NCBI GenBank assembly: GCA_963666515.2 | Contig: OY762897.2 | Location: forward strand, 672,001-736,000 | Direction of reading: 5' to 3' | DNA: 64,000 bases | Origin: Candidatus Binatia bacterium | Lineage (GTDB): Bacteria > Desulfobacterota > Binatia > UBA9968 > JAJDTQ01 | In this document: piece after piece, positions 53,087 through 59,299 of the stretch | Layout of the letters: each line of letters begins with the position of its first letter | Numbering within the stretch: the first letter of the stretch is position 1 | Program-made: the position numbers and the translations under genes | Notes under the pieces: generated by a model | Told to the model about the DNA's origin: nothing | The model's input: the letters and a program-made list of their open reading frames with translations, nothing else | Database searches by the model: none

Positions 53087-54052
53087 CTACCTCTCGGGAC
53101 GACGGGCGTTCATCCTGCTTCCAAGCCTGATGGGGTGCTCCGGGTGGAGCGTCCTGAAGCCTGCGATGGAGACCCACACCCGCAAGAGATGGCGGCCGGC
53201 GCCGTCGGCGGCGAACCGGGTGCGCGTGTGCAGGACCACATGGTTGTTGAAGTATTCGATGTCGCCGGGCTGGAGTTCCAGGGAAACCGCGACCTCGTCG
53301 GCTACGGTATTGAAGACTTCGAGAGCGCGGTTCTGGGCCTCGGTCAGCTCGGGGACTCCGGCCAGTTTCTGCGCCCGTCTGATGTGGACCGGGAAGGCGC
53401 AGGCGTTGAACACGCCGCGGTGAACGCTCAGGAACGGCAGCCGGGTCCACGGGTGGGCGTGGTCCGGATGCGGGTGCGGCAACGCCACGTGAAACGGCCG
53501 GGTGAGCACGCGCAACCGCTCGGGATACTCCGCCGCCAGGATGTTGTAGACGGTGGCGGCGCTGGCGAACCTGCGGGTTCCGCCGGCGCGGGCGGGGCTC
53601 AGGCAGAGGAAGCCGATGACGTCTTCGGGGTCGGCGTGAAAGGGAAGCTCGCCGGTCGCGCGAAATCCCAACCGGTCGCGGTTATCGGACTCCGCCCGTA
53701 CGTGCGCCATCCGCACCCCTCCCGGCTGCTCGGCGATATCGCCCAGCAGTCCGCTCAGGGCCGAGAAGGCGCCGGCGACCTCCGGCTCGTTCAGGCTCGT
53801 CAACGGCAGACCCCGGAGGATCCGGAAACCGAGACCGGACTTGAGTTCACGGGCGGTGGCCGCCATCTGCGAAGCCAGCAGCGGCCGGCGGGGCGTCTTC
53901 CGAGGCCCGGCTACGGGCGCTTCCCGCGCCAACGCCGAAAGCTCCGCCAGTTCGCCGCCGGTGAAGTGATGGCGCCAGGCTTCCGACCGTTCGATGTCGC
54001 CCGGCGCCCAGGCCGCGGGGTCTGCCGTCCTTGGAAACTCTCTCGCGTCCAT
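53087..54052 (-). CDS. TauD/TfdA (clavaminate synthase-like) Fe(II)/2-oxoglutarate dioxygenase
   Basis: GLGFRILRGLP, FHAD (HxD), A..GG....S and LQPGDIEYFNNHVVLHTRT facial-triad motifs. Confidence 0.9.
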   Translation of the reverse strand: MDAREFPRTADPAAWAPGDIERSEAWRHHFTGGELAELSALAREAPVAGPRKTPRRPLLASQMAATARELKSGLGFRILRGLPLTSLNEPEVAGAFSALSGLLGDIAEQPGGVRMAHVRAESDNRDRLGFRATGELPFHADPEDVIGFLCLSPARAGGTRRFASAATVYNILAAEYPERLRVLTRPFHVALPHPHPDHAHPWTRLPFLSVHRGVFNACAFPVHIRRAQKLAGVPELTEAQNRALEVFNTVADEVAVSLELQPGDIEYFNNHVVLHTRTRFAADGAGRHLLRVWVSIAGFRTLHPEHPIRLGSRMNARRPER

Positions 54053-54071: not shown

Positions 54072-55409
54072 TCACTTTTCGCGGAAGGCGTCCTGCCGGT
54101 AGCCCCGGAGGGGTTGCAGGACGTATTCGATGACGCGTTGCGTGCCGAGGATGAGCGCGGCTTCCGCGGCCATTCCGGGCAGCAGTTCGACTTTCTGCCC
54201 CTCGATCTCCATGTAGGTCCGGTCGAGATCGATGAGCGCCTTGAACACGGGGCCGGCCGGCCCGGGCTGCGGAGCGGTTGCCGGGCCGGCGCCGGCCGCG
54301 ACGTTCCCGGGCGCCGGCGAGCCGCCCTGAGCCCCTGCGTTCACCGCATCCTTGCCCACGTGGCTCACCGTGCCCTCGATGGCGCCGTAGCGGCGGAAGT
54401 CGAAGGTCGCCACCTTGAGGGTGACCCGCTGGCCGGGCTTCACGAAGCCGATGTCGGTGTTGGCGACGAAGGCCTCCACGCGGACCCCGGCGTTGCCGGG
54501 TACGATCACCATGAGGCGGGCGCCGGGCTCCACCATGCCGTTCTCCGTGTGCACGGCGAGGTCCTGGACCACGCCGTCCACCGGCGACCGCAGGGTGTGC
54601 CGGGCGCGGTGCTCCCGCGCCTGGCGGAGATCCTGCCGCAGCACGATCATCCTTTCGCGAACGGCCGCGAGGGTGGAACGGCGTTCCCGGTAGAACTCGG
54701 AGGCGGCGCGTTCCTTCTGCGCCCGGATCCCCGCCAGAGAGGCCGTGACCTCGGTCAGCTCCCTGCGGCGCAGCGCGATGTCGCCCTCCAGCTCCACCAG
54801 CCGCTCCTGCTCTTCGAAAAGAGCCAGTCGGGAGCCGTGGTCCCTGCGGTACAGGGTCTCGCGCATGGCCGTCCGCTCGCGCAGAATGGGCAGCAGGCTC
54901 CTGTGCTTGGCGAGCGCGGCCTCGATGGTGAGGAGTTGCGCGCGACGCTCCGCCATCACGCCGTCCAGTTCGTGGAGACGCGCCCGGTGCGCCGCGACCT
55001 GATCCGCCAGGAGCGCCTTGTTGACGGAGACGATCTCCGGCGGGGCGCCGGCGGGCGGGTGGAAAGGCAGGGCCTTGCGCCACGCCAGGGCGGCCTCGAG
55101 GCGCGCGGCTTCCACGGACTTGATTTGAAGCTCGGCGGCGAGCTTGGAGATCTCGGCGTCCACCAGGGTCGTGTCGATCTCGATCAGCACGTCGTCCTGC
55201 TCGACCGGGGTTCCTTCCTCGACGGCGATGCGGCTGATCTTGCCCTGCTCGAAGGACCGGATGACCTTCACCTGCCCGGTGGGCACGATGCGGCCCGGAG
55301 CCACCGCGGCCAGTTCGACCTCCGCCACCGACGCCCACGTCAGGGTGGCGACGAGAAAGACGCAAAGCGCTACGAGCAGGAGGACGTCCGGGCGATGGAA
55401 TCTCTTCAC
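54072..55409 (-). CDS. HlyD-family type I secretion periplasmic adaptor
   Basis: N-terminal TM, APGRIVP..VK, coiled coil, LRSPVDGVV, DIGFVKPGQ..KVATFDFRRYG and LLPGM...RVIEYVLQPL...FRE. Confidence 0.95.
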   Translation of the reverse strand: MKRFHRPDVLLLVALCVFLVATLTWASVAEVELAAVAPGRIVPTGQVKVIRSFEQGKISRIAVEEGTPVEQDDVLIEIDTTLVDAEISKLAAELQIKSVEAARLEAALAWRKALPFHPPAGAPPEIVSVNKALLADQVAAHRARLHELDGVMAERRAQLLTIEAALAKHRSLLPILRERTAMRETLYRRDHGSRLALFEEQERLVELEGDIALRRRELTEVTASLAGIRAQKERAASEFYRERRSTLAAVRERMIVLRQDLRQAREHRARHTLRSPVDGVVQDLAVHTENGMVEPGARLMVIVPGNAGVRVEAFVANTDIGFVKPGQRVTLKVATFDFRRYGAIEGTVSHVGKDAVNAGAQGGSPAPGNVAAGAGPATAPQPGPAGPVFKALIDLDRTYMEIEGQKVELLPGMAAEAALILGTQRVIEYVLQPLRGYRQDAFREK

Positions 55410-55852
55410 GCGGAGCTCCCGAGGCCCTCCCCTCTCGACCGCCGCAACCGGACCCCCTTCTCACCGGCCCACAGGAGAGAACAGGCCGCGGCGGCAAGCA
55501 CAAGAGCGGCCCGCCACCATCCGAGGACGTCCCCGACCTCCCACCAGTGGAACAGCGTCGTCACTTCACCCGCGGCCAGGGCGAGCAACATCAAGGCCGG
55601 CAGGGCGTACGGTCTGACGAGCCGGTTCAAGGAGGCTGCGATCACGAAGACGAAGATCGAAAACAGCATCGCGCCGACCACCGCGCTGCCGGCGGACCTG
55701 CCGTGGTACTCCACAAGCCACGCCGTCTGCCCCATGAGCCAGAATGCTCCGGCAACGACGGCGAAGCACGCTGCCCGCGATATCCTGAGATACCGGCTGA
55801 ACTTGTCGTCCCCTTCCCTGTGGCGGAAGGCTCCCATGAACTCGAATTGCAT
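55406..55852 (-). CDS. Small 4-TM membrane protein (immunity-like, unknown)
   Basis: AGGAGG RBS, four hydrophobic segments and GTGA 4-nt overlap with the HlyD gene. Confidence 0.7.
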   Translation of the reverse strand: MQFEFMGAFRHREGDDKFSRYLRISRAACFAVVAGAFWLMGQTAWLVEYHGRSAGSAVVGAMLFSIFVFVIAASLNRLVRPYALPALMLLALAAGEVTTLFHWWEVGDVLGWWRAALVLAAAACSLLWAGEKGVRLRRSRGEGLGSSA

Positions 55853-55904: not shown

Positions 55905-55936
55905 GGCGACGGGGGATGCGTGAATCCCCCGTCGCC
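55905..55936 (-). terminator. 13-bp perfect stem-loop downstream of the precursor gene (attenuator or mRNA stabiliser)
   Basis: GGCGACGGGGGAT-GCGTGA-ATCCCCCGTCGCC; only a short U tail. Confidence 0.7.
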
Positions 55937-55979: not shown

Positions 55980-56447
55980 CTATGGCATTCCCATTGCGTT
56001 GTTCATGTCCTGGGCGGCCTCGTCGGGATCGATGGCGCAGTTGGGACTGGTTACCAGCGTGCCGATGGCGCCCGTAGCCGCACCCGCGGCGGTTCCGAGA
56101 ACAGCGCCTCCGCCCGTCACGATGGTGGCGGTCCCTCCCAAGGCCGCGCCCACCGTAGCGTCCACCGCGACGTCGGTGCCACACGAGCCTCCCGAATCGG
56201 TGTCGTCGCTGCCACCGAGATTCGATGACACCGCGTCATCGTAGTCGTCCGCGCTCATGTTGTCCTCGTCGTCCGAGCTGCACGAGCAACTGGAACAACT
56301 GCAGCTACACCCGCAGCCACATCCGCACCCGCAGCCACATCCGCACCCGCATCCGTGGATCTCCAGGTCCAGCTCGTCCTCCCGCGCATCGAGCAGCCAG
56401 GGAACGGCTACCGGCCCCTTTTCGATGGAATGGTTGAAGAGTTGCAT
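55980..56447 (-). CDS. Putative RiPP/bacteriocin-like precursor with (GC)8-SCSCSSCSCSS tract
   Basis: AAGGAG RBS, leader ending EDELDLEIHG, 14 Cys, acidic linker and Gly-zipper C-terminus; synonymous codon variation within the repeat; upstream of HlyD. Confidence 0.75.
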   Translation of the reverse strand: MQLFNHSIEKGPVAVPWLLDAREDELDLEIHGCGCGCGCGCGCGCGCSCSCSSCSCSSDDEDNMSADDYDDAVSSNLGGSDDTDSGGSCGTDVAVDATVGAALGGTATIVTGGGAVLGTAAGAATGAIGTLVTSPNCAIDPDEAAQDMNNAMGMP

Positions 56448-56654
56448 TTCGTATCTCCTTCCTGGTTTGGATTGTTGAGCGTGCTATCGCCGCCCACATA
56501 AGATTAAATCGGCCAGGTGGAGTCGAAACTTTAGGGGAAATTTCGCGGTCAAGGCATTTTTCTGCACAGCGGTCACCGGCCGCGGGGGACGACGACCGGT
56601 GACTGCGCCTCGTTGCTGCGAAAAAGTGGGATGGATGAGTGTGGCGGGCCGGGG

Positions 56655-58649
56655 CTAGTCTGAAGTTCTGAGGCCAAGACAGCGTAAGTGGTTGAATTTA
56701 GGGGGAATAGGATTGAGACGGCAGTACGGGTTCTGACTACACGGGGAGTTTGAGGTGGAGGAGTTCCAAGGCGAGGCGTTGGAGGTCGGTGGGGAGGGTG
56801 AGTTGTTGGAAGGTCAGCTTTGAGCCTTGGAGTTGAAGGGTATTGCGGGTGAGGGTGGCCAAGTGGCGGAGCAGACCGCGGAAGTGGTGCACGGGTTGCC
56901 CCTGTGGGGTTCGGCGGGTGGCGGCTTTGCGCTCGGAGCTGTGGGAGGGCACGCTGGGGCTGACGGGGGAGGGGCGGCGGCGAGCGGCGTCCTGGGGGTC
57001 GTCTTCGGCGAACAAGAGTGGAGCCCAGGCTCGCCGCATGTGCCACTCGACGTAGTAGGCGAGCATGCACAGGAAGACGTGGGCGCGCACGCGCTGGGAC
57101 AGGCGGTGGTGGATCGGGCGCACGTGGAGGTCCACGGTCTTGAGGCATCGGAAGGCGCGCTCGACTGCGGCGAGGCGTTTATAGGCGCTGACGGTGGAAG
57201 TGGCATCGAGGAGGGGCTCAGGGACGGAGGTGCGGATGACGTAGAGGCCGTCGAGGCGGGCCTCTTGAGCGATGGCGTCGGATTTGCGCTGATAGCGGAA
57301 CGAGGACTCGGTGACGGTCATGTCGAAGTGCTTGGCCATCTTGAAGCGGCCCAACACCCGGCCCACCCGCAGTGCGATGGCGCTCTCACCGCGAAGCGGT
57401 CGTTTGGGGCGTTGGGTGGCCCGGACGATCTTGTCCAGTTCCTGCTCGGTGGCGTCCAGCAGGGCTTGGCGTTTGCGCCGACGCTCCTGGCACAGCAGGG
57501 GGTTGAGGCAGGCGATGAGGCGTTCGCCGGGGAAGTCTGGATGAGCGATTTCAGCCAGGTCGGTGTGGTCGAACAGGGACGACTGCAAGGGGCCTTGGTC
57601 TTGGGCGAGCTTGGCGACGGCATCGCTGCGTAGTGCACTGATCCAGTCCAGACCCTCCACCGGGCGCAGTTCCTCGTCGATGCGCGCACTGGTCAACATT
57701 CCCCGATCGCCGACGAACACCACACGCTCGAGCCCGAAGCGCTCGCGGACCTTGTGGATCTGGTCCGCCAAAGTGCTCGGGTCAGCGGTGTTGCCCTCGT
57801 AGACCTCCACCGCCACCGGACAGCCGTCGGCGTTGCACAGTAGTCCGTAGACGATCTGCAGCTTGCCTTTCTTGCCGTCCCGCGAGTAGCCGATGCGCCC
57901 CAGCGGGCAGCGCCGCCCTTCGAGATAGCTCGAAGTCACGTCGTAGAGCACCAGCGTGCCGTGGTGGAGATGGCGCTTGGCCAGACTGCGTTCGATGCGC
58001 CCCTGACGCTCCCCCAGCCAGTCCATGGCCTCATACAACTCTTCGGCCTGCACCGCCTCAAGGCCGAGTTCCTCGCCCAGGGTGGACGTCGCACTCTCGG
58101 CATCCAACGCCCGCGCCGTGGCCAGCTTCGAGTCCGGACACAGCACCCGGGACACGATCAAGGCCACACTACGGTCGCGTTGGACGCTGTGCCGAGAGTC
58201 CAGCAGCCGCTCCAGCCCCAGCGCCTTGACCGTGCCCAGCACCGCAGCCACGTGTCCATGGGGGCGTGAGCGCAACACTTGCAATGCCTCCTCGGCCGGC
58301 ACCAGGGTCTTGCCGCCGAGTGCGAGGCGCACCAGTTCCACCACCGAATCGGGCAGGTGGGAGAGGTTGCCGACGGTTTCGTTTTTGACCTTGCCGTTTT
58401 CGCGGTAGGAGCGCCTGAGCAGGTGGGTGGTGTAGACTCGGTCTTTGTATCGACGCGTGGTAGTAACGACGTGTACGGCGGCCTTGCGTCTTGGCATACA
58501 TGGGATTGTAGCACAATCACCGAATGAGTCAAGTCTATTTAGTGACTACATGTTACGCCTGAAATCTGCCCTTGAATCCCCAAATGTCTATCCAATACAA
58601 TGAGTTAGAGGCTGTCAGGCCGGAATCCGGCCCCAGAACTTCAGGCTAG
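56655..58649 (-). mobile_element. IS1634-family insertion sequence
   Basis: Ends CTAGTCTGAAGTTCTGAGGCC (56655-56675) and GGCCCCAGAACTTCAGGCTAG (58629-58649) match 19/21 as an inverted repeat; CTAG at both ends. Confidence 0.88.
56737..58497 (-). CDS. IS1634-family DDE transposase
   Basis: LLRRSYRENGKVK, LYDVTSSY.EG, GYSRDGK, FVGDRGM and YKRL..VERAFR.LK...RPIHH...RVRAHVFLC motifs. Confidence 0.93.
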   Translation of the reverse strand: MPRRKAAVHVVTTTRRYKDRVYTTHLLRRSYRENGKVKNETVGNLSHLPDSVVELVRLALGGKTLVPAEEALQVLRSRPHGHVAAVLGTVKALGLERLLDSRHSVQRDRSVALIVSRVLCPDSKLATARALDAESATSTLGEELGLEAVQAEELYEAMDWLGERQGRIERSLAKRHLHHGTLVLYDVTSSYLEGRRCPLGRIGYSRDGKKGKLQIVYGLLCNADGCPVAVEVYEGNTADPSTLADQIHKVRERFGLERVVFVGDRGMLTSARIDEELRPVEGLDWISALRSDAVAKLAQDQGPLQSSLFDHTDLAEIAHPDFPGERLIACLNPLLCQERRRKRQALLDATEQELDKIVRATQRPKRPLRGESAIALRVGRVLGRFKMAKHFDMTVTESSFRYQRKSDAIAQEARLDGLYVIRTSVPEPLLDATSTVSAYKRLAAVERAFRCLKTVDLHVRPIHHRLSQRVRAHVFLCMLAYYVEWHMRRAWAPLLFAEDDPQDAARRRPSPVSPSVPSHSSERKAATRRTPQGQPVHHFRGLLRHLATLTRNTLQLQGSKLTFQQLTLPTDLQRLALELLHLKLPV

Positions 58650-59299
58650 TGCGCCACCTGGGCCATGGCCATGGTGATGGACTCTTCGATTTCGGCGATG
58701 ACGGCGCCCACCTCGCGCCCGATGAGGTCCATGACGCGGAGTTGCTCGACACGGGGACGCACCCGCTCCATCTCGCGTTCCGAGAAGATGTCGCTCAGGA
58801 TGTCGCAGGCGTCCACCAGGCAGACCAGCGCCACGTCCCGCGGGTCGGGCATGTCGTCGGACAGCAGCACGTCCTCCATGCGCAGCTTGACGCCCCGTTG
58901 CACCCGCCCGTCGATGGTGGGATAGCGGCGGGAATGGAACACCCACAGGAACTTCTCGTCCTTGGCCTCCAGAATGCCCCGTTCGACGAGGCTGTCCATG
59001 GCCCGCTGGCGGACGTCGGCGGCGTGCTCCCGGGCCAGCACCTCCACCCAGGCCTTGGTGCTCATGGTTTCCCCGGCGTTGGCGATGCGCTCCAGTGAGC
59101 CGTCCAGCAGGGGGTTGCCGGTGGGTGTCGAGTCGAGGACCTGAAGCTTCTCGGGGTCGGTGTCGATGCGGTTGGCGAAGGCCAGGTCCATCAGCACCGC
59201 CCCCACCAGGATGTGCTCCACCGCACCGCCCCGGATGGGCAGGAACAGGCCGTCGTCGTCCAGCATCAACAGCAGGATTTCTTCCGTGAACGTAAGCAT
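58646..59299 (-). CDS. GPP34/GOLPH3 (Vps74)-family protein
   Basis: LTFTEEILLL.LDD, GAVLMDLA, TGNPLLD and LVERGIL...KFLWVF..RRYP motifs. Confidence 0.85.
   Translation of the reverse strand: MLTFTEEILLLMLDDDGLFLPIRGGAVEHILVGAVLMDLAFANRIDTDPEKLQVLDSTPTGNPLLDGSLERIANAGETMSTKAWVEVLAREHAADVRQRAMDSLVERGILEAKDEKFLWVFHSRRYPTIDGRVQRGVKLRMEDVLLSDDMPDPRDVALVCLVDACDILSDIFSEREMERVRPRVEQLRVMDLIGREVGAVIAEIEESITMAMAQVAH

Follow-up and report, generated by a model that had tools for sequence, protein, structure and literature searches.

The DNA analysed here, which we call the window, is a stretch of 64,000 nucleotides from a Candidatus Binatia bacterium (assembly GCA_963666515.2, contig OY762897.2, positions 672,001 to 736,000), and it contains on its minus strand a small gene (55980..56447) whose product carries a run of alternating cysteines behind an acidic leader. 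We propose, with a confidence only a little above even, that this product is a precursor peptide whose C-x-C tract would be oxidised in trans by an iron enzyme of the MNIO (DUF692) family together with a partner protein, that it would be exported by a HlyB/HlyD-type system, and that its bacteriocin-like tail would be neutralised by a 148-residue membrane protein encoded next to it. In the following, L numbers denote loci, P numbers protein representatives and G numbers genomes, and C1 is the contig of the window's own genome (G000).

The precursor gene encodes 155 residues with a pI of ~4.05, 24 Asp plus Glu, 2 Lys plus Arg and 14 Cys (judged from the list of open reading frames (ORFs), homologs and composition), and a Shine-Dalgarno sequence, AGGAGA (56454..56459, minus strand), can be read 6 nt ahead of its ATG. 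The leader comprises residues 1 to 31 (56355..56447, minus strand); in two alignments W17 was invariant and L19 and L26-D-L-E-x-H31 were nearly invariant. It is followed by the tract GCGCGCGCGCGCGCGCSCSCSSCSCSS, the translation of window 56274-56354 (minus strand) and residues 32-58 of the ORF, which reads (GC)x8-SCSCSSCSCSS and holds 12 Cys in 27 residues. Its residues 32-56, (GC)x8 SCSCSSCSC with all 12 Cys (56280..56354, minus strand), are the predicted core for the MNIO enzyme. Then come an acidic linker, residues 57-88, SSDDEDNMSADDYDD... (56184..56279, minus strand; by composition 11 Asp plus Glu and no Lys or Arg), a Gly/Ala/Thr-rich domain flanked by Cys89 and Cys137 (56034..56183, minus strand), termed type H and a putative membrane-active toxin module, and a C-terminal tail of residues 139-155 (55983..56033, minus strand) delimited by a composition scan. 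A hydropathy scan showed the precursor's N-terminus, which is acidic, to be free of hydrophobic segments (no dedicated signal-peptide predictor was run). An earlier note on this DNA had described the tract correctly: translation confirmed the 12 Cys in 27 residues, the codons are those it listed, and EDELDLEIH-G precedes the tract. The 18-bp unit that it had found duplicated is present in 2.4 copies with a 100% match at 56308-56351 (Tandem Repeats Finder). It had not seen the 99 residues beyond the tract, which form the acidic linker and the toxin-like domain, nor the cognate membrane-protein gene.

Homologs of the peptide were recovered by several routes. Searching 5.8 billion protein clusters by word index gave 32 proteins at E<=1, and an exhaustive hidden Markov model (HMM) search of 1.84 billion representatives with a leader-plus-tract profile gave 28 matches at E<=0.001, two of which (P0044, P0047) are long repeat proteins that we judged spurious on reading. 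Among 185,579 species-representative genomes, scanning for the pattern yielded 96 matches, of which 22 were confirmed as loci with the same leader, the same frame and a Cys tract; they come from metagenome-assembled genomes labelled Candidatus Binatia or Deltaproteobacteria/Thermodesulfobacteriota bacterium. Scanning metagenomes added three more loci with the context of those already found. The common layout is M-x(15)-W-x-L-D-x(5)-[DE]-L-D-L-E-[IV]-H-G-C-G-C-G-C, and in the first family alignment W17, G32-C-G-C35 and two later Cys were invariant. The leader measures 31-32 residues in 21 of 24 copies, lengths of 39 (L016) and 61 (L009) being start-codon artefacts of the measuring script. The tract spans 18-36 residues with 9-16 Cys in the relatives, and members of the family have 69-309 residues in all, with an acidic linker and a C-terminal domain that is variable or absent.

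The precursor gene is real and under protein-level selection, and no microsatellite, because leader and tract stand in frame in the relatives, the variation is dominated by third codon positions and the synonymous codons are mixed. Column entropies, summed over 28 ungapped codons from 26 distinct copies of the gene, came to 17.8, 11.4 and 36.5 at codon positions 1, 2 and 3, respectively. Cys is encoded by TGC 214 times and by TGT 114 times in the tracts, and all four Gly codons occur. C-x-C accounts for 263 of 302 Cys-to-Cys spacings, and the intervening positions are filled by G (217), S (89), A (32) and D (20). The number of repeats drifts, from (GC)15 in L021 to (GC)3 plus interruptions in L003, which fits slippage under selection for the peptide. 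The view of the earlier note, that the peptide is selected and is more than a simple repeat, was thus borne out, the comparison of repeat number among homologs that it had suggested showed the 9-16 Cys given above, and conservation of the DNA repeat in a different reading frame, which it had named as evidence to the contrary, was not observed in any of the relatives' copies. A GC-rich simple repeat lying in a chance open frame might be suspected here, given the duplicated 18-bp unit and the many spurious ORFs that high-GC DNA produces. Against it stand the Shine-Dalgarno sequence, the conserved synteny and the codon pattern in 26 distinct copies with an in-frame leader, and we regard it as extremely improbable.

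Among the genomes searched, the family was confined to one genus of Candidatus Binatia. It was present in 8 of 151 genomes sampled across the class, all eight belonging to the window's genus, and in none of 142 genomes of other genera of the class. Within the genus the peptide was detected in 27 of 28 genomes with 59 match rows, one to five per genome, some genes giving two of these rows. The window's genome holds a single copy; the paralogous leaders for which the earlier note had suggested a search were therefore found in related genomes, and only one copy of the leader in the window's own.

The connection to an MNIO enzyme is most direct in the relatives. In L009 the precursor is followed by genes for an MNIO protein of the MbnB/TglH/ChrH family (PF05114, 3.4e-71), a 262-residue partner without family assignment, an ABC exporter, HlyD, TauD, an SDR protein and a peptidase S9. 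L061 has the eight genes of L009, all on one strand, and in L062 the order is precursor-S9-MNIO-partner-ABC-HlyD-TauD, with one gene between precursor and MNIO. The search for DUF692 enzymes proposed in the earlier note thus gave a positive result, with a precursor-adjacent MNIO gene in L009 and L061 and exactly one MNIO gene in the window's own genome (C1:664073-664954, PF05114 1.3e-73). Directly downstream of the latter lie the gene of a 261-residue partner (C1:663301-664086) and that of a 599-residue ABC protein (C1:661509-663308); MNIO, partner and ABC share 77%, 58% and 76% identity, respectively, with their counterparts in L009, and an SDR homolog is located downstream of the ABC gene. 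No precursor was found upstream of or beside the MNIO gene of this genome.

In the window, the peptide gene is accompanied by genes for a HlyD-family type I secretion adaptor (54072..55409, minus strand; TIGR01843 2.3e-99, 333 bits with a cut-off of 209) and a TauD/TfdA-family Fe(II)/2-oxoglutarate oxygenase (53087..54052, minus strand; PF02668 1.4e-33), whose nearest solved relatives are 7N7V, a 'predicted hydroxylase' (9e-30), and FrbJ (5e-23). Because such a HlyD-TauD pair is contiguous with MNIO, partner and ABC genes elsewhere, a single biosynthetic and export operon has been split in the window's genome, with the precursor and its neighbour gene at the HlyD-TauD half. A comparison of coordinates revealed 13 MNIO/TauD pairs within 6 kb, in 11 genomes, and in L063, too, HlyD-TauD is contiguous with MNIO-partner-ABC. 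In the window's closer relatives the MNIO half and the HlyD-TauD half lie 55-170 kb apart. The position of the HlyD-TauD pair changes from species to species: in the 11 genomes it adjoins MNIO-partner-ABC, and the closer relatives of the window have it next to the precursor. In genome G166 the pair is missing from the precursor locus (L006) and present at the MNIO locus, 65 kb away.

The presence of the components across the genus supports the link between peptide and MNIO system: MNIO was found in 26, TauD in 27 and the peptide in 27 of the 28 genomes, counts that are not independent, as the genomes are kin. Peptide, MNIO and TauD are all missing from genome G089 (98% complete, 2.7 Mb), and the sole other MNIO-negative genome of the genus is 76% complete. 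Since 27 of 30 MNIO loci examined at +/-1.5 kb have no adjoining precursor, one enzyme pair probably serves dispersed precursors. MNIO paralogs adjacent to a precursor showed 77-81% identity, and the unlinked copy 82-89%. In L022, directly after the precursor, a 23-residue fragment (L022:11042-11110) is 83% identical to the MNIO protein and looks like the relic of a deleted MNIO gene.

As to the type of enzyme, the best-scoring NCBIfam models for the window genome's MNIO were MNIO_BufB (4.2e-60) and HvfB (2.4e-54), followed by ApyH (5.5e-27), ChrH (2.7e-16) and MbnB (1.9e-11), and among solved chains it matched 3BWW (1.5e-35), TglH (2.3e-17) and MbnB (1.8e-6). The partner reached DUF2063 only below threshold (E 0.009, 16.7 bits with a cut-off of 27.2). 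A Foldseek search with its AlphaFold2 (AF2) model (mean predicted local distance difference test score (pLDDT) of 71.6) returned first 8HI7_A, from the TglHI holoenzyme (E 9.7e-6), and then NGO1945/3DEE (E 1.2e-3, TM 0.54). We take chain A of 8HI7 for TglI, since the 304-residue chain matched in the PDB search is TglH. The model thus suggests that the partner is a protein of the TglI/DUF2063 fold, resembling 'PME-type 2' in the terms of the accessible part of PMC12452194 (Antoine et al.), where signal-less Cys-rich precursors pair with non-Pfam partners of that name. According to the part of PMC13097082 available, enzymes of the HvfB/FonB type convert Cys to 5-thiooxazole with loss of four hydrogens per Cys, the products bind copper, and the known BufB/HvfB substrates have Sec signals and Lys-Cys or Cys-Lys motifs. 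By analogy with these 5-thiooxazole-forming enzymes, we infer a conversion of Cys to thiooxazole, and metal binding, for the present tract.

Of the features that mark MNIO-modified precursors, the window's genome has an MNIO enzyme with partner and a core rich in Cys (12, and 9-16 in the relatives); another such feature, an MNIO gene immediately preceded by the precursor, occurs in L009 and L061 and not in this genome. Two features of bufferins and captophorins, the Sec signal and a partner recognisable as DUF2063 at Pfam level (PME-type 1), are absent.

The ABC protein of the system is of the HlyB type (TIGR01846, 1.3e-155). In the window's genome it covers model positions 125-693 and is thus without the N-terminal domain. 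Among L027-L063, an extra domain of ~160 residues gave tblastn matches in 17 loci; the window genome's own locus and 18 others matched only the start of the transmembrane domain. In the relatives this domain reached 16.5-20.5 bits with a Pfam C39 cut-off of 22. When aligned by MAFFT to the genuine C39 domain of the genome, it had Arg at the position of the His in 'SHFVV', and the Cys region was unaligned; it seems to be a degenerate, HlyB-type version of a C39-like domain. Double-glycine leaders end in a GG, GA or GS site with hydrophobic residues at -4, -7 and -12. The junction of the present leader is an invariant H-G-C; taking G as -1 puts Ile at -3, and taking GC as -2/-1 puts Leu at -6 and -8. 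The double-glycine leader with C39 cleavage that the earlier note had proposed is not supported by this junction or by a HlyB-type ABC protein whose N-terminal domain is absent here and apparently degenerate in relatives.

The YcaO and C39-ABC genes for which that note had suggested a search do exist in the genome, one of each, and both sit in a separate gene cluster of the NHLP type for a thiazole/oxazole-modified microcin (TOMM). This cluster (C1:556987-572773, locus L064) lies ~155-170 kb from the peptide, its SagD-type YcaO (TIGR03604, 1.5e-84), the only one in the genome, at ~165 kb. It encodes its own precursor, a 437-residue ORF with an NHLP leader domain (TIGR03793, 7.5e-12), a 771-residue fused leader-binding/SagD-type YcaO, NHLM ABC1 (with the only genuine C39 domain), ABC2 and a short adaptor ORF. 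Given that the system's ABC protein has no C39 domain and that genuine C39 and YcaO belong to this other cluster, in our reading the 31-residue leader serves for recognition by the partner protein and is not a double-glycine export leader. The route envisaged in the earlier note, in which YcaO would act in trans to form poly-thiazoles in the manner of microcin B17 and a C39 ABC protein would cut the leader after HG or GC, can point to the two genes and to Gly-Cys being a classical azole substrate. It is difficult to reconcile with the NHLP cluster having a precursor, two NHLM ABC genes and an adaptor of its own, with a peptide leader that matches no NHLP or other NCBIfam model and has no GG, GA or GS site, and with the absence of YcaO genes from the related loci mapped (L009, L061 and L062 among them); we give it very little credence. 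Two further ideas were dropped: intein- or Hedgehog-like autoprocessing of G|C at H-G-C, as no Hint-type domain follows, and lanthionine formation on the SCSC part, as no dehydratase was seen in the loci mapped.

The second half of the proposal concerns what follows the tract. The 24 peptides of the window and the 22 loci were sorted by eye according to their tails, and the neighbouring genes were searched within 2.5 kb. Thirteen peptides (window, L002-L006, L010, L014, L015b, L016, L018, L019, L020) have the type H tail, Cys-flanked, Gly/Ala-rich and of ~50 residues, and all 13 have as a neighbour a homolog of mem148, the 148-residue protein with four hydrophobic segments encoded at 55406..55852 (minus strand) of the window, a putative immunity protein for the type H domain. 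Three (L011, L015a, L017) end in a 'MGFDP...GEMSSP' tail, and each is accompanied by a Sel1-repeat gene (PF08238); the two Sel1-repeat proteins that were read have a hydrophobic, signal-like N-terminal segment. Six short forms (L007, L008, L012, L013, L021, L023) consist of leader, tract and 6-36 more residues, and none of them has a mem148 or Sel1 neighbour. L009, with the MNIO gene next to it, and L022 fell into no class. In the syntenic loci L007 and L008 the absence of the tail coincides exactly with that of the 148-residue gene. Separately, L015:4667-8056 holds two tandem precursors with different tails, each with its own type of neighbour (Sel1 gene, then a four-segment membrane protein), and in L019 there are matches to the membrane protein on either side of the precursor.

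Tail and neighbour also diverge fast. Across syntenic loci the identity is 35-67% for the peptide and 31-66% for the 148-residue protein, and 74-84% for HlyD, 62-76% for TauD and 88-95% for EutA. L005 and L006 keep the leader and linker of the window's peptide with a different tail and have the most diverged neighbour protein, and the acidic linker is near-identical in L003-L005 even where the following domain differs. There are at least the following tail types: Gly/Ala-rich and Cys-flanked, 'MGFDP', Hedgehog-N/LAS-like, long Ala/Glu-rich, and none. For six members (P0025, P0027, P0029, P0030, P0041, P0043) all 24 PDB rows matched by the tail profile were Hedgehog-N chains (best 4e-5), in an alignment that spans the '...H-x6-D' stretch of the zinc site; bacterial cell-wall peptidases of the LAS/M15 group have the same fold as Hedgehog-N. 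Weaker tests of this tail gave E 0.3-0.5 in a single-sequence PDB search and an AF2 model with a pLDDT of 51, for which Foldseek found no match at E<=0.001, and no Pfam family matched it. A constant N-terminal module, alternative C-terminal domains and a neighbour gene specific to the tail type are features of polymorphic toxins. With its constant head, swappable tails and cognate, fast-evolving neighbours, the family shows the build of polymorphic toxins and bacteriocins, and from this toxin/immunity pattern we infer that the tail would be toxic and its neighbour protective.

Taken together, the partner would bind the 31-residue leader and present the C-x-C tract to the BufB/HvfB-like MNIO, which would oxidise many or all of the 12 Cys to thiol-bearing heterocycles, by analogy 5-thiooxazoles with a mass change of -4 Da each, giving a metal-binding and probably copper-binding array. 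The TauD-family oxygenase of the window and the SDR protein encoded beside the ABC gene may add further changes. As their family membership suggests, the HlyB-type ABC exporter and the HlyD adaptor of the window would then provide the exit from the cell. The association pattern suggests that the Cys-flanked Gly/Ala-rich domain would act as a bacteriocin-like membrane-active module from which the adjoining four-segment membrane protein would protect the producer. The earlier note had left the choice between a core modified in trans and a metal-binding array; modification in trans is the most likely, a thiol-derived metal-binding array is plausible, and the poly-thiazole route is unlikely. Tentatively, the same components could make a metallophore-toxin chimera, in which the string of chelating heterocycles made by the MNIO enzyme would stay on interchangeable, type I-secreted toxin domains, the metal-loaded array serving as a handle for targeting or uptake on competitors and the tail-less short forms as free metallophores; we consider this extension unlikely.

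The same tract can be explained without a toxin. It might be modified and exported solely for metal handling, as in bufferins and captophorins, with the C-terminal domains as followers, anchors or carriers and the 148-residue protein as a receptor, anchor or transport partner. The nearest characterised MNIO enzymes yield copper-binding peptides for metal stress, and the tract appears to work without any tail, because short forms, in which only a brief acidic stretch follows the tract, are conserved in several species (L007, L008, L012, L013, L023, P0036, P0038). What such a function would not lead one to expect, and what is typical of toxin-immunity cassettes, is that the tail type co-varies with the downstream gene (13/13, 3/3, 0/6), that tail and neighbour diverge fast and that one tail type appears homologous to LAS/Hedgehog-N zinc hydrolases; metal handling alone is therefore a doubtful explanation, although it is the main rival. 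Less probable still is an array of plain thiols, in which unmodified cysteines would bind metal or clusters in the manner of a metallothionein within a type I-secreted protein and the MNIO enzyme would act elsewhere. The dense C-x-C motifs with small residues between the cysteines resemble those of metallothioneins, metal binding itself being a candidate property, and enzyme and peptide are encoded 64 kb apart in the window's genome. Yet in L009 and L061 the MNIO gene comes right after the precursor, the window genome's MNIO gene has no other candidate precursor beside it, peptide, MNIO and TauD are jointly absent from G089, and unless a partner recognises it, the invariance of the leader is difficult to account for.

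Several observations weigh against the proposal of an MNIO-modified peptide with a toxin-like tail. This genome's MNIO gene is separated from the window by 7 kb and from the peptide gene by 64 kb, so that action in trans has to be assumed. Its product scored below the equivalog cut-offs of BufB (203 bits, cut-off 310) and HvfB (185 bits, cut-off 360), and its chemistry may for this reason differ from the BufB/HvfB type; the window's peptide also has neither the Sec signal nor the Lys-Cys/Cys-Lys motif of BufB/HvfB substrates. Seven mapped loci (L009, L010, L014, L016, L019, L061, L062) have, along with the system, a peptidase S9 that bears a hydrophobic segment at its N-terminus, and no ortholog of it was found in the window's genome, which leaves removal of the leader, if any, unexplained. 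Neither the peptide nor its tail nor the 148-residue protein matched a family in Pfam, NCBIfam or the atlas, where the rows lay at or below the level reached by shuffled proteins; for the 148-residue protein an NCBIfam row naming 'Stx2f subunit A' (16 bits with a cut-off of 715) was rejected as a chance match. No segment of the tail exceeded a Kyte-Doolittle mean of 1.5. For the type H domain, glycine-zipper clusters were only weak leads in the atlas (0.83-0.84, below 0.9), and the type H-like L022 has no mem148 match. The sequencing runs covering the stretch are four DNA-type runs from one study, with no RNA run among them. Finally, an insertion sequence (IS) element that we regard as active ends 208 bp upstream of the precursor start codon and, by its position, may have displaced or replaced the precursor promoter.

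The genes of the locus follow each other on the minus strand in the order precursor, hairpin, 148-residue gene, HlyD and TauD, and EutA follows on the other strand. The hairpin (55905..55936, minus strand), between the precursor gene and the 148-residue gene, has a perfect 13-bp stem, a 6-nt loop, a high GC content and no U-run. The 133-nt spacer that contains it has a minimum free energy of -53.8 kcal/mol (z -3.39), and none of 200 shuffles folded as well. It is possibly an attenuator or an RNA stabiliser and may set the ratio of precursor to downstream transcript.

The IS element occupies 1,995 bp (56655-58649) and has 21-nt terminal inverted repeats and a DDE_Tnp_1 transposase gene (56737-58497, minus strand); the genome carries five copies at 99-100% identity and four at ~70%, and L006 has a transposase 87% identical to that of the IS element at the same relative position. 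Genes for GPP34 (Golgi phosphoprotein 3-like, PF05719, 3e-45), a family unusual for bacteria, are found at window 58646-59299 and also in L003, L004 and L007; they flank the syntenic loci, often as tandem pairs ~72-74% identical. Elsewhere in the window's genome, C1:253171-254409 is an 'empty' version of a site that in other genomes holds MFS-MFS-precursor-immunity-S9-(OCD). Its ~1.2 kb between the MFS and OCD genes showed no remnant, the only trace being one 19-residue S9 row at E 0.33, so the presence of the precursor cassette at the MFS/OCD site varies between species.

Class II and siderophore microcins and Cdz-type bacteriocins are small, acidic, Gly-rich peptides flanked by disulfides, exported by ABC and HlyD proteins and encoded alongside a small membrane immunity protein; class IIb microcins have a metallophore attached to the toxin, and the leader is a double-glycine leader of 15-20 residues cut by a C39 domain. 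The present peptide resembles them in being small, acidic, Gly-rich and Cys-flanked, in its ABC and HlyD genes and in the adjoining gene for a small membrane protein. It differs from them in having neither a double-glycine leader nor a C39 domain, and its metallophore-like part would be gene-encoded, made by an MNIO enzyme and located on the N-terminal side. Polymorphic toxin systems, reportedly described by Zhang, Aravind et al. in 2012, share with it the conserved N-terminal module, the recombining C-terminal domains, each with its own neighbour gene, and the fast divergence. In contrast to them, the proteins are very small (69-309 residues), and the constant module is a leader of the kind found in peptides that are made by the ribosome and modified after translation (RiPPs) with a Cys tract, without a known trafficking domain. 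In prochlorosin-type systems one enzyme serves many dispersed precursors. The ratio of one to three MNIO genes to one to five precursor matches per genome and the invariant leader with a variable remainder are similar to this, whereas enzyme class and chemistry are different.

MNIO-modified Cys-rich peptides are already known and form a fast-growing class, in which, among the Cys-modifying representatives that have been characterised, those closest to this enzyme are copper buffers exported by the Sec route. The literature searched contained none of the following traits of the family: secretion by a type I system, TauD and SDR genes, dispersed precursors, and toxin-like tails with cognate genes. 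Nothing joined 'MNIO' and 'type I secretion' (subscription-only papers lay outside the scope), the one place where 'MNIO' and 'immunity protein' occurred together was the introduction, of a general kind, to PMC12452194 and its preprint, and searches for DUF692 with HlyD, polymorphic toxin or type I secretion system (T1SS) and for Binatia with RiPP returned nothing relevant. The family would add a leader-dependent C-x-C-repeat substrate with the densest Cys core among the substrates in the literature compared, and furthermore a HlyB/HlyD export route, oxygenase and reductase genes, scattered precursors and recombining toxin-like domains with protection genes. Were the tract modified and kept on the toxin, RiPP metallophores would be linked with polymorphic bacteriocins, and the chimera would be a ribosomal counterpart of the siderophore-microcins; a mere metal buffer would still be an undescribed substrate class for the MNIO family. 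Three genes and a 60-residue substrate might also provide a simple test bed for how an MNIO enzyme processes twelve adjacent sites.

The closest known systems are the bufferins and captophorins (BufABC, HvfABC/oxazolin, FonABC), which, in the accessible parts of PMC12452194 and PMC13097082, combine an MNIO enzyme with a DUF2063 partner and yield copper-binding peptides with 5-thiooxazoles. The present system differs from them in its conserved acidic 31-residue leader in place of a Sec signal and in its C-x-C core (Gly/Ser/Ala-Cys), theirs being EGKCG or Cys-Lys in those parts of the sources. Further differences are a partner below the DUF2063 cut-off, export by a HlyB-type ABC protein with HlyD, the presence of TauD and SDR genes, the lack of DoxX in the loci mapped, dispersed precursors and variable toxin-like tails with cognate genes. 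The two systems agree in the MNIO enzyme, which scored best with the BufB/HvfB models and 3BWW, in a Cys-rich, repetitive precursor, in the order precursor-MNIO-partner (L009, L061) and in the NGO1945/TglI fold of the partner. In the same report, Antoine et al. (2025, PMC12452194) list a group named adjamnio-I, comprising 100 signal-less sequences of 122-293 residues with 8-21 Cys and the gene order precursor-MNIO-PME-type 2; its accessible text states no leader motif, taxonomy, export genes, tails or immunity genes. Compared by description only, as given in that text, adjamnio-I fits the present family, which may thus already have been listed in silico, without a description, under this name.

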